From an uncultured Ruficoccus sp. (GTDB taxonomy: Bacteria; Verrucomicrobiota; Verrucomicrobiia; Opitutales; Cerasicoccaceae), in contig OZ223497.1 in the NCBI GenBank assembly GCA_965140785.1, positions 96,001 through 160,000 on the forward strand: a stretch of 64,000 nt of DNA, given 5' to 3'. The position numbers and the translations under genes are program-made. Below are positions 2,840 to 49,184 of this stretch, one piece after another (position 1 is the first letter of the stretch; the number at the start of each line of letters is the position of its first letter). The notes beneath the pieces were generated by a model, which searched no databases, was not told the DNA's origin, and saw only the letters and a program-made list of their open reading frames with translations.

Positions 2840-3119
2840 GCGGGGTTTATAGCAAAACGGTTGAAAAAGTGAAACGTCCTAAGGTTGTTACCGACGAGCC
2901 CGGAATCTTGAGCGTAGACGACATGGTTCGCCTTTTCCGAATGAACCAAAAAATTGATCCGGAGATATGCGGCCTGCTGGCCCTCGGAGCCTTCGCGGGG
3001 ATGCGGACCTCAGCCATCGCCAAGATGGACTACGAGGAAATCGACTTCGCCCAGCGCGGTATTCTGATCCCGGCCAGCAAAACGAAAAAGCGCCGCCGCC
3101 AGTGGATTGAGGGGTTGCC
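2836..3119 (+). pseudogene. Tyrosine recombinase/integrase fragment
   Basis: LALGAFAGMRTSAI (box I Arg) and IPASKTKKRRR (catalytic Lys region); no HxxR/Tyr; cut off by the element starting at ~3120. Confidence 0.75.
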
Positions 3120-3230
3120 GTGGAGTATGCGATTTCTGAGTTTCTTATTCCTTGGCAGCAACTTATGGTTTTTTGAAAAAGTTGTCTTGAAACCGCAAGT
3201 TTTACTTCTGCTAGCATGATGGCTGGCTGG

Positions 3231-3253
3231 GGGAAGCTGCGAAGCGCTGACCT
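3231..3253 (+). repeat. 23-nt mini-hairpin insert GGGAAGCTGCGAAGCGCTGACCT
   Basis: Absent from the homologous site in copy B (GGC TGG|ATG AAC, ~36623); present at 48963-48985. Confidence 0.85.
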
Positions 3254-3296
3254 ATGAACCGTCATCAGCAGCAAGTCATTGAATACTTGGTCGAGG

Positions 3297-3338
3297 TACC
3301 GAACTGAGGCGCAGCCTCGGCGACAAAGCGAAGCGCCC
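3297..3338 (+). repeat. 42-nt double mini-hairpin insert, hybrid of 36667-36708 and 37519-37555
   Basis: TACCGAACTGAGGCGCAGCCTCGGCGACAAAGCGAAGCGCCC. Confidence 0.85.
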
Positions 3339-3559
3339 ATGCCTGAACAAGATGATTTTCTTCAGCGAGGCAGCCTTACGGAAAGTCATCAGCGAATACG
3401 TGCTGCATTACCATCATGAGCGACCGCATCAGGGCCGCGATAACCAAATCATCGAGCCGGACGTAGAAACCTTTCGCAATCAAGGCCCGATCCGAAAAAT
3501 CGCACACCTCGGTGGTCTCCTGAATCACTATGGCTGAGTCCCACCTTTTGGCCCAGTAG

Positions 3560-4540
3560 CTATGATAGTTTTCCGGTCGGGTTATTGTGTTGGTTGGTTT
3601 GTTTTTTGAGGTTCTGGCGCAGAGAGGCCGTAGGCCGAACGGAGCCGGAACCTGTGTTTGGTTGTTTGGCAAACTGGGCGGGCGTGAGCAAGCCCAGAGA
3701 GCGGTGAGGTCTTTCGTGATTATGCAGATGCCTGTAGTCATCGAAGATGACGCGTGATTCACTGAGGGTGTAGATGAGTTCGCGATTGAGGCATGTCTTC
3801 GCTGCGCTCGAGTGTCGCCGTGCCTGAGGGCACAGGCTCGGTACGCGCCTAAACTTCTCGTTAAAACTCTCGACGAAACCGTTCTGCCAGGGGCATCCCG
3901 GGTCGATGTAGAGCGTTTTTATCTGGTTATCGGACAGCCAACGCTGGATACACTTAGCAATGAACTCAGGGCCGTTATCGGAGCGGATAAACTCCGGGGC
4001 CTCATGTTTGGCGATGGCCCCCTGGAGCAGCGTGAGTACGTCTTCGGCTTTGATCGCCCGGTCCGAATGGATGCAGTGGCACTCGCGTGTGTACTCGTCG
4101 ATGAGGTTGAACACGCGCAGCTTGCCGCCACGCTGGGTGTAATCGCTCACAAAGTCCCAGCTCCAGACATGGTTGCGACGGAGCGCCTCGGTCGGGAGCC
4201 CCGTGGACAAGCCCTGGCGACGCCTGCGAGGTTTGGGCGCGGGCACTTGCAGATGCTCCTCGCGACGCACCCGCTGCACGAGCTTCTTGCCCACGGCCCA
4301 GCCCTCATTACGCAGCTTTTGCGTGATCTTGCGGTATCCAAAAAACGGATACTTCCGGGACATCTTCACGATCTCGGATTCGAGCAAACGTTGTTTCTCG
4401 GGCAGGGGCTTGGGGCGATACCGGTAGGTCGAGCGAGCAATGCCCAGCCATCGGCAGACCTGTCTCCCGGAGCACCGGAGCGCAGACACCACCTTCGCGG
4501 CGGTGCTGCGCTGGCGATCCGGGCTCAGGCGTTTTTTTCC
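3560..4540 (-). CDS. IS3 transposase OrfB (DDE), with a 16-aa net in-frame insert
   Basis: GYRKI, WSWDF, RSDNGPEF, PWQNGFVESFN, HNHERPHRSLG; VPSLCPQARRHSSAAKT stands where E is expected in FRR-E-CLN; start approximate (frameshift fusion). Confidence 0.88.
   Translation of the reverse strand, partial: GKKRLSPDRQRSTAAKVVSALRCSGRQVCRWLGIARSTYRYRPKPLPEKQRLLESEIVKMSRKYPFFGYRKITQKLRNEGWAVGKKLVQRVRREEHLQVPAPKPRRRRQGLSTGLPTEALRRNHVWSWDFVSDYTQRGGKLRVFNLIDEYTRECHCIHSDRAIKAEDVLTLLQGAIAKHEAPEFIRSDNGPEFIAKCIQRWLSDNQIKTLYIDPGCPWQNGFVESFNEKFRRVPSLCPQARRHSSAAKTCLNRELIYTLSESRVIFDDYRHLHNHERPHRSLGLLTPAQFAKQPNTGSGSVRPTASLRQNLKKQTNQHNNPTGKLS
3795..3843 (-). repeat. 49-nt double mini-hairpin insert in IS3 orfB
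   Basis: Minus strand CGC G[TACCGAGCCTGTGCCCTCAGGCACGGCGACACTCGAGCGCAGCGAAGAC]A TGC. Confidence 0.85.
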
Positions 4541-4797
4541 AACGCGATCTCCAGAGCTTTGATCTGGAGCAACTGGTCCGCGACTATCTTTTTGAGCTGA
4601 TCGGCTTCCTTTTCCAGCTCCTTGAGCCGTTGCGCCTCCTTCACGCTCAACCCGCCATACTGCTTCTTCCAGCGGTGGTACGTCGGCGCACTGATGCCAT
4701 ACTCGCGGCAAATATCATCCGCGCGCATGCCTTCGCTCGCGCGAAGGATGCGGATGATCTCTTCGGTCTCCCTTTTTTCATATGATTTTACGGTCAT
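4525..4797 (-). CDS. IS3 transposase OrfA (HTH plus leucine zipper)
   Basis: DICREYGISAPTYHRWKKQYGG, RLKELEKE; ends at GGAAAAAAACGCCTGA, a -1 frameshift motif (4532-4538); start uncertain. Confidence 0.88.
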   Translation of the reverse strand: MTVKSYEKRETEEIIRILRASEGMRADDICREYGISAPTYHRWKKQYGGLSVKEAQRLKELEKEADQLKKIVADQLLQIKALEIALEKNA

Positions 4798-5204
4798 TCC
4801 TGACCGAAAAATCTATCAACAGCAATGGGCCAGTTTCAGGGGGCCCTGCCAGCTTCGTCTTCGGCGTGAAAGCCGTCTCTACCGGAGCGAGACTATTCTA
4901 GCTCGAAGTCGATTGCCGGTTTTGAACAGTACCTTGACGTTCATTTGAGTTCTGATCAGAGGATAATAATATTTGTGGAAAATCAGCTGTTTTATTGAAA
5001 AATATTTTCGATTTACATCTGCGTTTTCAGCGCGGTGTGTGTTAAAATCGATTCAATCGAATACTTTCTGCCAATAGCTTTCGTTCGTTGTTACTCCATA
5101 GATTATGCTGTTTCGCCAATGATCCGTTCGTGCATTTATAACACGGATTTCAATCAACACTAACCCTATGGTTCATAGATATTTAACTTACGATACCGCT
5201 TGTT

Positions 5205-36569: not shown

Positions 36570-36666
36570 AGAGAAGATTTGAAACAACAAGCTTACCTAT
36601 TACTGACCATGATGGCTGGCTGGATGAACCGTCAGCAGCAGCAAGTCATCGACTATTTGGTCGAGG

Positions 36667-36708
36667 TACCGAACTGAGGCGTAGCCTCGGTGACAAAGCG
36701 TAGCGCCC
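36667..36708 (+). repeat. 42-nt double mini-hairpin insert
   Basis: GAG G[TACCGAACTGAGGCGTAGCCTCGGTGACAAAGCGTAGCGCCC]A AAC; empty allele GAG GAA AAT at 49022-49030. Confidence 0.9.
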
Positions 36709-37456
36709 AAACCGCATTCTCCGTGAGCAACTCGACATCCATGCCAAAGGCAAGCGCATCCGTTTCAATGCGACCCAGCGCAGACGCTTGGCCGAGAAAG
36801 GCCGTTGCTTGGGACGCAAGTTGCTGATGAATATCGCGACGCTGGTGACGCCGGAGACGATCTATCGTTGGCATCGCCAATTCGTCGCAATGGCTTATGG
36901 TCCGAAGGGTAGGGATCATTCCGTTGTCCATGCTCGGCGGGCCGAGCGCAATGCGCTCATCATCAAGCTTGCAGTTGAGAACTCAGGCTGGGGATACACG
37001 CGCATTCAGGGCGTGATGCAGAATCTCGGTTATCCCAAGCTGAGCACTTCGACCATCGGGGAGGTGCTGCGAGAGGCAGGTATTCGCCCGTCGCCGGAGC
37101 GTAGCAGTCGTCTGGACTGGAAGACGTTTATCCGTGTTCATGCCGATCAACTTGCGGCTACGGATTTCTTCATGGTGCCGGTATGGACGTTGCGTGGCCT
37201 GGCCATGTATCGGGTGCATTTCGTGATCGACCTGCTGACACGCAAGGTGGAGATCACGCACATCGGTTGCCAATACTCGGGCGAATTGATGCTTCAAATT
37301 GCCCGGAACCTGACGGATGCGTTCGAGGGATTCCTGACCGGCAAGAAATACCTGCTGCACGATCGGGATACTCTCTTTACAAATGTGTTCCGCGAGTTGT
37401 TGCGCAGTAGTGGCACTATCCCTTTCAGGCTTCCTGTGTGCATGCCGATGATGAAC

Positions 37457-37493
37457 GGCGGGCGCCTACGCCAGCCCGCCCGGCTACGCCGGG
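37457..37493 (-). repeat. Double hairpin (25-nt net insert) over the third DDE acidic residue
   Basis: GGCGGGC..GCCCGCC and CCCGGC-TAC-GCCGGG; shifts the frame before FVKSIK. Confidence 0.7.
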
Positions 37494-37518
37494 TGCTTCG
37501 TTAAGTCGATCAAGCGTG

Positions 37519-37555
37519 TACCGAACCTGCGAAGCGGCGACAAAGCGAAGCGCCC
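37519..37555 (+). repeat. 37-nt double mini-hairpin insert
   Basis: CGT G[TACCGAACCTGCGAAGCGGCGACAAAGCGAAGCGCCC]A TGC. Confidence 0.88.
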
Positions 37556-38129
37556 ATGCCTGAACAAGATGATTTTCTTCAGCGAGGATGCTCTGCGGAA
37601 AGCCATCAGCGAATACGTGCTGCATTACCATCATGAGCGACCGCATCAGGGCCGCGATAACAAAATCATCGAGCCGGATGTAGAAACCTTTCGCAATCAG
37701 GGCCCGATCCGAAAAATCGCACACCTCGGAGGGCTCCTGAATCACTACTATCGCGACCCATTACCCAAAATTGAAGAAGAGGAGGGTCGGGCCGCATGAG
37801 CTTTTCCGGTAGTTACTTTTCTTCAAAAAATGCCCGAATTCGATGCTCGGGTGACTCCTTCCCCATCGACTCATATGCCCTGAATCGGCAAAATTATGGG
37901 CGTATGATTTCGTCCTCCAACCTGCAAACGAAAGGATTCTTGGCACGCGCAAGTGACTGAGCGATGCGCGTCCATGCGACTGCGTGCAACGCTACTGATT
38001 TAATTACGCCTTAACTCGAAAATGAATGAAGTTGCTGTATGCTGGTAATCAGCGACTTACGATAGGCCGTCCGCGTCCCGCCACCTCCAGGAGACAACGG
38101 ATTGCCGTTTTGAAAACGTTTGCCGCCTA

Positions 38130-48844: not shown

Positions 48845-49184
48845 TGGAGGTGTGGAGTATGCGATTTCAGGTTTTCTTGCCCCTTGGCAGCGACTTATGG
48901 TTTTTTGAAAAAGTCGTCTTGAACCCGTAAACTTTACTTTTGTTGAGCTTGATGGCCGGTGGGGGAAGCTGCGAAGTGCTGACCCATGAGCCGCCAGCAG
49001 CAAGTCATCGAATATTTGGTTGAGGAAAATCGTGTTCTTCGTGAGCAACTCGACATCCACGCCAAAGGTAAATGCGTCAATGCGACTGCGTGCTACTCAA
49101 TGACCTTAACTGGCAAATGAGTGAAGTTGCTGGGTGCTGGTAATAAGCGACTTATGAATGCGAGTCCGCGTCCCGCCACCTCCA
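48845..49184 (+). mobile_element. 340-bp non-autonomous deletion derivative (copy C) of the rve element
   Basis: TGGAGGTG...CACCTCCA terminal inverted repeat; 5' transposase remnant fused to the 3' tail. Confidence 0.75.

Follow-up and report, generated by a model that had tools for sequence, protein, structure and literature searches.

A family of very small mobile inserts in transposase genes of an uncultured Ruficoccus sp. and other Opitutales

Rickettsia palindromic elements (RPEs) are selfish palindromic sequences of ~100-150 bp that lie in frame within housekeeping genes, where they are tolerated. Insertion of the IS200/IS605 type, as found also in palindrome-associated transposable elements (PATEs) and in RAYT-associated REPs (repetitive extragenic palindromes), is seamless, the insertion point lying 3' of a tetra- or pentanucleotide that is conserved. 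Group II introns and IStrons, likewise selfish, favour other mobile DNA as a safe haven and are found in the sense orientation, whilst the mitochondrial 'byps' are inserts that are passed over by translational bypassing. Here we describe X, a family of inserts of 27-52 nt found within the transposase genes of insertion sequences (ISs) in the genome of an uncultured Ruficoccus sp. The stretch analysed, hereafter the window, comprises 64,000 nt (positions 96,001 to 160,000 of contig OZ223497.1, assembly GCA_965140785.1); in it, one X lies in orfB of an IS3-family element and others lie in a transposase gene of a different family, referred to as rve after its Pfam domain.

Inserts of this kind in transposase genes were not found described in a literature search that stopped short of preprint supplements; the nearest account is that of intragenic palindromic REPs tagged with GTAG/CGTC, which are most numerous in Opitutus terrae (PMC3733652). 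These resemble X in being short (20-40 nt) and hairpin-bearing with a conserved tag at one end, in occurring in Verrucomicrobia of the same order, in lying inside coding regions to which they add a few residues, and in being thought to be non-autonomous mobile DNA. RPEs are also mentioned there, and in its table of REPs inside genes O. terrae accounts for 70 rows, with no occurrence of either 'transposase' or 'integrase' (PMC3733652). The 50-nt bypass gap of phage T4 gene 60 has mobile relatives, according to a preprint (bioRxiv 10.1101/2022.08.31.505936).

Inserts at one residue of two unrelated transposases

The IS3-family element and its insert comprise the following features, in which hyphens set off the replaced residue of a motif.

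3550..4832, minus strand: IS3-family insertion sequence of ~1283 bp; ends TG...CA, terminal inverted repeats imperfect (TGGCCCAG... / ...CTGGGCCA)
4525..4797, minus strand: orfA, 90 aa, intact (Pfam HTH_Tnp_1, E 2.8e-13)
3560..4544, minus strand: orfB, in a frame open from 3560 to 4711 (Pfam rve, E 7e-19), sharing 86-88% identity with orthologues that lack the insert
3794..3844, minus strand: X insert of subtype C, replacing the GAA codon of FRR-E-CLN in orfB

Pfam matches to the two open reading frames (ORFs) were HTH_Tnp_1, HTH_21, rve and rve_3. The element belongs to the IS3 family by its helix-turn-helix orfA and rve-type DDE orfB, the overlap of orfB with the end of orfA at a run of A residues, and its TG...CA ends. 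Counting the shared flanking G and A, the insert is 51 nt long and replaces one codon, giving a net gain of 48 nt in frame. On the minus strand the junction reads ...AAGTTTAGGCGC-GTACCGAGCCTGTGCCCTCAGGCACGGCGACACTCGAGCGCAGCGAAGACA-TGCCTCAAT... and the insert GTACCGAGC-CTGTGCC-CTCA-GGCACGG-CGACA-CTCGAGCGCAGCGAAGACA; the protein across it is ...NGFVESFNEKFRR(VPSLCPQARRHSSAAKT)CLNRE..., with FRR before the inserted residues and CLN after them. The insert is free of stop codons and is the sole irregularity of an otherwise intact element. When orfB was searched against 401 genomes of the order Opitutales, the loci of 13 relatives were compared by blastn and the junction was read in eight. The four closest insert-free orthologues scored (L259, L284, L260 and L263, from other genera, with 79-91% protein identity) are all without the 48 extra bases; their sequence is TTC CGS CGY GAA TGC CTM, encoding FRRECL.

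The rve-family gene, and a remnant of the same element, are represented by five features on the plus strand.

36609..37799, plus strand: full-length rve-family transposase gene, copy I1, with three small inserts (Pfam rve_3, rve and rve_2)
36666..36709, plus strand: X insert of subtype A, 44 nt, net +41, at LVE-E-NR, containing in-frame GTA CCG AAC TGA
37456..37480, plus strand: a different, 24/25-nt GC hairpin insert (GGCGGGC...GCCCGCC) directly before the catalytic Glu, NG[GRYASPPG]YAEC
37518..37556, plus strand: X insert of subtype B, 39 nt, net +36, with an open frame, at IKR-E-CLN
49025..49027, plus strand: empty subtype-A target (GAA) in a truncated, insert-free remnant of the rve element (48995-49078)

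Two intact insert-free paralogues of 362 codons, U1 (contig C26, 80698-81873) and U2 (C4, 131383-132558), carry GAG at each of the two X sites. At the subtype-A site, insert-free paralogues have GAG GAG AAC; at the subtype-B site, where the filled junction of I1 is ATCAAGCGT-GTACCGAACCTGCGAAGCGGCGACAAAGCGAAGCGCCCA-TGCCTGAAC, they read AAGCGT GAG TGC CTG. The first-pass annotation had reconstructed a GAA codon as the empty target in both genes, which holds for IS3 orfB, as its four closest orthologues show, but not for the rve gene, in which the codon is GAG. It had also recognised that the upstream X adds a stop codon, although the start of that insert is moved here from 36667 to 36666. Outside its inserts, I1 has no stop or indel relative to U1. 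The GC hairpin insert is 25 nt long and causes a frameshift in I1, is 24 nt long and in frame in copies I2 (C26, ~164770) and I3 (C4, ~168290), and is absent from U1 and U2.

A BLASTP alignment of U1 with IS3 orfB has 23% identity over 234 residues, with a gap of 16 residues falling exactly where KSIKR----ECLDK faces EKFRRVPSL...AAKTCLNR. Both insert sites lie nine residues after the catalytic Glu (ES/ECF...), hence the earlier suggestion that the two dissimilar genes were hit at the same position after the catalytic-Glu helix proves correct, as does that of in-frame gains of 48 and 36 nt, with the IS3 insert slightly re-delimited to 3794-3844. No nucleotide similarity between the two host genes was seen beyond the target, the wording CGY GAR TGC CT, which encodes the conserved R-E-C-L motif in both. 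Since the IS3 insert is of subtype C (51 nt) and the rve insert of subtype B (39 nt), the proteins are only distantly similar, and insert-free relatives exist for both sites, the comparison supports two putatively independent landings, at FRR-E-CLN and IKR-E-CLN, on the same DNA wording, in agreement with the first-pass view that these were not one inherited accident. In a larger set of homologues, X also occupies the R/D-E-CL motif in three or more additional IS3 families of this genome, as well as in an IS3 from a different bacterial family of the order.

A separate length difference was observed upstream of the ATG AAC CGT start of rve-element copies, where a 21-23-nt segment (GGGAAGCTGCGAAGCGCTGACC-like, with a GCGAAGC minihairpin) is present or absent (window 3228-3250 and 48960-48982; C26 ~163950; C4 ~167470; C48 110828); this may represent a further mini-insert or a deletion.

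Anatomy, target and orientation of X

Each X begins with a head, T[AT]CCGAG, followed by a hairpin or a GCGNAGC minihairpin, the sequence (C)GACA, a second GCGNAGC(G) and a tail, the 3' end of which is C. The CTGTGCC/GGCACGG hairpin is visible in the subtype C insert of the window, and this 7-bp stem differs from that of subtype A (CTGAGGC/GCCTCGG) by compensatory changes. Subtype C drifts in length, being found as 50, 51 and 52 nt. Observed heads are GTACCGA[AG], TTCCGAGG, CTACCGAG and TTCACGAG, none of which contains GTAG.

A hidden Markov model built from 18 seeds was used in an nhmmer search of the 4.36-Mb genome. This gave 21 matches at E<0.01, along with three weaker subtype-D copies, and the flanking translations place all 24 in transposase genes. 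The insert pattern likewise had 21 matches, against none for a reversed-pattern control. A looser regular expression had 37 matches, compared with nine in the reversed genome; the recognisable extra copies, again in IS3 genes, include an X4-like copy at PW-Q-N and a 36-nt 'F' type. In total, the genome contains ~27 copies of X, all in IS3 or rve transposase genes. Subtype C is present in an orfA and in four or more different IS3 families, and subtype A is found in both the rve element and an IS3 orfB. The bare 9-mer head proved unsuitable as a signal, not being enriched (23 occurrences with one mismatch against 19.6 expected; genome-wide, 44 against ~67), and a first loose regular expression was discarded, its 216 matches being mostly spurious; hence only the full insert pattern is specific, not the head alone.

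Several further observations concern individual copies or short matches. An old IS3 copy at C48 103000-104100 (minus strand) has at least six small inserts in addition to an internal deletion. Three are X, of subtypes C, A and D; orfA has an E-type, the frameshift window has a 22-nt hairpin, and the F-type, of 35 nt, is antisense. Small inserts seem to accumulate in old IS copies. The X head GTACCGAGG is identical to positions 37-45 of tRNA-His(GTG) of this genome, with GTACCGAAG present at the same place in tRNA-Arg(CCG), and the X tail GCAGCGCCCA corresponds to positions 64-73 of tRNA-Val(TAC); these matches may be due to chance or hint at where X came from. The genome also has a tRNA-Sec(TCA) gene, making it probable that the organism uses selenocysteine; several X subtypes carry an in-frame TGA.

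The sites hit in the rve genes of this genome are LVE-E-NR and IKR-E-CL. Those in IS3 orfB are R/D-E-CL(N/K), in at least four IS3 families, TR-E-C(L/H)C, W-K-YNN and PW-Q-N, and those in orfA are KR-E-LG and KE-N-A. In the larger set, codons for Glu, Gln or Lys are also targeted in motifs other than that shared by the two genes of the window (DNG[SP]-E-F, LID-E-YTR, TR-E-CL, KR-E-LG, PW-Q-NG and W-K-YNN). Eight of the 12 inserts queried have empty paralogues, in which the insert's position is taken by exactly one codon. At every polymorphic site, the filled allele is the empty allele with one base swapped for X: G-A-A becomes G-[T...C]-A, or C-[T...C]-A in place of C-A-A at PW-Q-N, or, in the antisense F type, c-[T...C]-AA in place of c-G-AA. 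The replaced base lies in an N-A-A/R triplet and is nearly always the middle A of a sense GAA or GAG codon, with the following base usually T. Many empty alleles read GAG while the filled allele keeps G...A, implying that either only GAA alleles are targeted, or two bases are replaced.

No target duplication was present at any junction compared, and there are no terminal inverted repeats; the X ends, TACCGAG... and ...GCGCCC or ...GAAGAC, are not inverted repeats of one another. Recurrence at ECL can be ascribed to this motif being worded GAR TGY CT. The first-pass proposal that insertion is sequence-directed holds weakly: the target in common is short, N-A-A/R and usually G-A-R followed by T, and by itself the consensus does not account for the presence of every copy in this genome within a transposase gene. 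When the aligned empty sites were inspected by eye for a target shaped as a bulge-helix-bulge or a hairpin loop, no consistent structure was found. A preference for in-frame codons was considered, since 15-16 of the first 16 sites are of this type, but these represent only ~8 motif types and ~60% of GART occurrences are in frame, and the preference is not significant.

Around 19 site-by-IS-family combinations are in the sense orientation, and one, the F type, is antisense. By a rough count that includes some spurious frames, GAR triplets in these genes are divided ~57:43 between sense and antisense, and the bias to sense orientation is real even with homologous motifs merged into ~8 types. The 36-nt X-like F insert (TACCGAGCGCGAAGCGCGACA...AAAAC) lies antisense at WD-F-VS in a multi-copy IS3 family (C25 52099, C25 73975, C49 1534 and C48 54866), where the G of an antisense GAA is replaced.

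X has some traits in common with each of the systems introduced above and differs in others. Unlike REPs, X has a GTAC/TACCGAG head rather than GTAG, with 5 nt between head and stem, and a second module made up of GACA, the GCGNAGC minihairpin and the tail; in this genome it is found only in transposase genes, not extragenically, and does not flank the Y1/RAYT-like genes examined; and it replaces one base at a defined triplet, almost always in the sense orientation. With RPEs it shares selfish palindromic in-frame insertion into coding genes, but X is only 27-52 nt long, is often frame-breaking or stop-bearing, and targets the genes of mobile elements. As in IS200/IS605 elements and PATEs, there is neither target duplication nor terminal inverted repeats, the element is asymmetric with small hairpins near both ends, and insertion is strand- and orientation-specific beside a short target; however, X replaces a base (G-A-A becoming G-X-A), its 5' flank is variable, it is far shorter than any known functional minimal IS608 derivative, and no X-like ends lie beside the Y1 genes examined. 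The lack of terminal inverted repeats and target-site duplications also distinguishes X from MITEs (miniature transposable elements bearing inverted repeats) mobilised by DDE transposases. Bypass inserts resemble X as mobile, sense-oriented, non-coding sequences of 27-55 nt inside ORFs, some with a stop after a codon that recurs downstream, although matching take-off and landing codons were seen, by eye, in only some copies of X (subtype A at the rve site, and X1). Group II introns and IStrons differ in extending over hundreds to thousands of nucleotides, with ribozyme folds and usually an encoded protein, and an Rfam scan of window positions 3000-5000 gave three weak, chance-level matches, none of them to an intron. 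Among small mobile palindromic repeats, X is unusual in size, in the chemistry of its junctions and in having transposase genes as hosts.

Recombination, selection and distribution in the Opitutales

Pairs of X within one IS copy are associated with loss of the intervening DNA. The example in the window is a single junction.

3296..3339, plus strand: hybrid X, with an A-type 5' half and a B-type 3' half, marking an internal deletion of the rve-element copy at 3254-3540 by recombination of its two X's

Four IS copies (window 3254-3540, C26 178766, C10 469904 and C39 139355) are internal deletions with a hybrid or single X at the junction, which indicates that pairs of X act as recombination substrates that destroy IS interiors. 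The IS3 element of the window is nested at the 3' end of this internally deleted rve remnant (3540-3552).

Copies I1, I2 and I3 of the rve gene differ pairwise by synonymous divergence (dS) of 0.43-0.48, with ratios of non-synonymous to synonymous divergence (dN/dS) of 0.079-0.149. A hand count over the 26 codons following the stop-bearing X of I1 and I2 gave eight synonymous and two non-synonymous differences. The inserts of these two copies differ at just ~3 of 109 nt, though adjacent synonymous sites differ. Low dN/dS together with near-identical inserts would follow either from constraint on the X-bearing genes, or from recent spread of X by recombination. The maximum-likelihood tree of rve copies is star-like, most supports being 11-59%, and groups insert-free U2 with insert-bearing I2 at 85%; hence dN/dS was not used as proof that X was present throughout the divergence. 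Monophyly of the insert-bearing rve copies, considered as a candidate history, is not supported by this tree.

The X pattern was found in three of 16 genomes of the family (21, 1 and 1 matches, with none in the reversed-pattern control) and in 16 of the 401 genomes of the order, in which the control totalled four matches. Matches are most numerous in G073 (50), G095 (40) and the genome of the window (G000, 21). Related copies are found in records of Opitutales metagenome-assembled genomes, Pelagicoccus, Puniceicoccaceae, Opitutaceae and strain DG1235, and 14 metagenome loci match X. Relatives outside transposase genes lie in intergenic DNA, or in tRNA fragments that have been duplicated; in these, X takes the place of T-loop A58 in 3' fragments (L015, L066 and L235) or of the GAA of a D-loop (L081). 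At L015, L066, L081, L115, L235, L240 and L241, from other Opitutales and metagenomes, the 3' end of a tRNA (Ser or Gln) is duplicated in tandem over a short stretch beside the real tRNA gene, and an X-like element lies within the duplication. X at tRNA ends is preceded by an inverted copy of the T-loop (e.g. GGATTCGAACC-GAA-GGTTCG), an arrangement resembling snap-back synthesis.

An IS3 family shared by G073, G095 and a third genome, G046, has five X sites: a, EKE-N-T (in orfA); b, LID-E-YTR; c, DNGS-E-F; d, PW-Q-NG; and e, LRD-E-CLN. Nine combinations of X were found among 27 full-length copies sampled. Nine further copies, chosen for an empty site b, added more combinations; seven of these were scorable at four or five sites, and two at only two and four. 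Two copies carry only X(a), with orfB intact. IS3 backbones just dS 0.035 apart differ in X content, hence the inserts are being reshuffled by recombination among copies, and recurrent de novo events need not be invoked.

Forty candidate IS3 copies were scored in each of G073 and G095. In G073, 32 of these were full-length matches of ~1299 nt with nearly equal scores; the eight whose sequences were compared are 99.8-100% identical, and have no lesion besides X(a) and X1, each of which is in frame and contains one TGA. In G095, a 15-copy subfamily carries X1, a frame-shifting X3 and an ordinary TAG at orfB codon 25. Since these TAG-bearing copies have multiplied, broken copies can be amplified, presumably in trans, and copy number is no proof that X is harmless. 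The codon-25 TAG was observed in ten of 28 aligned rows (the 27 copies and a query duplicating one), spanning several subfamilies and three genomes, which implies that broken copies propagate or that copies recombine. Elsewhere in G073, a classical IS200-like tnpA of 158 aa (L248, C2:934319-937663) is flanked by repeated GCACCCAACGGGTGCA...CCAGAGGTGCAGCGAAGCGAAATCTCTGG units, a REP-like family that contains the GCGAAGC minihairpin but is not X.

Nature of X and rival explanations

X is mobile, polymorphic in its presence at individual sites, biased in orientation, replaces one base and, in this genome, is confined to IS genes. It probably represents a family of very small, non-coding and non-autonomous mobile inserts, similar to REPs or MITEs, that prey on IS genes. 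As such a hyperparasite of insertion sequences, X would enter one IS copy by a single-strand or nick-based reaction, using the sense (non-template) strand, as the orientation bias suggests, and would afterwards be carried along by the transposing IS and passed from one IS copy to another by homologous recombination or gene conversion. Multi-copy sequences, such as ISs and tRNA-like repeats, could be the natural habitat of an element that multiplies only by being copied with its host sequence. Its consequences would be a lengthened ORF (here with 16 aa added within the helix that follows the catalytic Glu), a broken ORF in other subtypes, and the provision of short repeats that delete IS interiors.

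A number of observations weigh against X being a non-autonomous parasite of this kind. We know of no transposition chemistry that yields replacement of one base without duplication, and no partner enzyme for X has been identified. Y1_Tnp genes are present in all six X-bearing genomes checked, but also in six of 14 control genomes, such that their presence does not discriminate, and no X was found in the flanks of six Y1_Tnp loci (two in this genome, four in other X-rich genomes); a link to RAYT or IS200 elements was accordingly rejected. X hairpins are not more stable than those of shuffled sequence under nearest-neighbour DNA parameters (z -0.53, -1.58, +1.25 and +0.80), subtypes C and A giving -0.53 and -1.58 respectively, and subtypes B and D folding poorly. 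The target consensus is too short to explain the confinement of all copies in this genome to transposase genes. Insert-bearing genes do not look decayed, as illustrated by I1, whose dS from any relative is ~0.4 and which shows no further lesion, and the 32 near-identical G073 copies are otherwise intact despite their two X's. No X-free copy was found among the 27 sampled from G073, G095 and G046, and each of the seven copies scorable at four or five sites has at least one X. Such intact, multiplying insert-bearing copies fit an insert that is tolerated or removed better than a simple knock-out.

The rival that survives best is unlikely though by no means negligible: X would be an intervening or recoding element compatible with expression, being removed from the transcript, hopped, read through or serving as an attenuator, whilst the carrier IS stays autonomous. 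A more particular form, in which X is the bacterial counterpart of the mini intervening sequences of eukaryotes and organelles, neutralised in expression by transcript removal, hopping or read-through such that the IS is autonomous with its transposase output throttled, is decidedly unlikely. Expression of this kind would suit insert-bearing copies that are otherwise intact and under apparent purifying selection in the rve genes, and the near-identity of the I1 and I2 inserts beside diverged synonymous sites; however, the star-like tree and the grouping of U2 with I2 allow that recombination with intact copies could mimic such selection. The 32 G073 copies with two in-frame X's as their only lesions, and the absence of X-free copies among the 27 sampled and the seven scorable at four or five sites, point the same way, but the 15-copy G095 subfamily with its ordinary TAG shows that broken copies amplify. 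Near-exclusive sense orientation is a prediction of a process acting on RNA, against which stands the one antisense, frame-breaking X, itself in a multi-copy family. In sequence, there are bypass-like arrangements, AAC TGA ... AAC in subtype A at the rve site and AGC TGA ... AGC inside X1, and in A, B and X3 the head has CCG in the frame from upstream and the tail has CCA in that leading downstream; but matching take-off and landing codons are lacking in X2, X3 and X(a), and in subtype A where it lies in IS3, so that no common rule emerges. Furthermore, insert length drifts, as in subtype C, exact removal of X leaves GA rather than a codon, and no intron or ribozyme match was found in Rfam.

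It is highly unlikely that X is what a longer IS-nested element, later excised or deleted down to its two ends, left behind, either as footprints or in MITE-like form after internal deletion. The two-module construction, with conserved head and tail and a variable middle of different lengths, would suit such an origin, and ISs often nest inside other ISs. However, no parent was seen: the sole head-only copy (C10 448191) is a truncated remnant, and no tail-like sequence lies within 4 kb of it. The very same subtypes are met again at other sites, arguing that the short form itself is mobile, and the expected terminal inverted repeats and target-site duplications are lacking.

Template switching by a reverse transcriptase, at an A that is blocked or cleaved, to a small RNA resembling a tRNA, with recombination of the cDNA into the genome, is another unlikely route, and extremely so as an explanation of the whole family. 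The exact replacement of A58 of the T-loop (L015, L066, L235) and of the D-loop GAA (L081) speaks for it, as do the correspondence of the head to tRNA-His 37-45 and of one tail to tRNA-Val 64-73, the tail built as a GCG-NAG-CGC microhelix followed by CCA, and the sense orientation. Yet these tRNA matches extend over just 9-10 nt and were noticed after the fact, and RVT_1 was not found in any of five other X-rich genomes (three of them in 1-7 contigs), with the present genome having one reverse transcriptase gene. That one ancestral accident was inherited by the IS3 and rve elements, or transferred between them by gene conversion, is hardly credible: the two sites share the 11-nt wording CGY GAR TGCCT, but the inserts differ in subtype and length, the proteins are only 23% identical, and both elements have close relatives free of inserts.

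If X is indeed a parasite of IS genes, the insertion sequences of the Opitutales have parasites of their own that are among the smallest mobile DNAs described, at 27-52 nt, and that appear to insert through a reaction matching no known chemistry, with one base replaced, no duplication and no inverted repeats. X recurrently strikes conserved motifs of DDE transposases and seeds internal deletions of ISs, and may therefore be a natural brake on their expansion. The defined target, GAA or GAG usually followed by T, and orientation would make the reaction directly testable with a reporter. For genome annotation, X inserts split otherwise intact transposase genes into pseudo-fragments. Were the insert-bearing transposase genes expressed, they would constitute a new bacterial case of intervening sequences or recoding.

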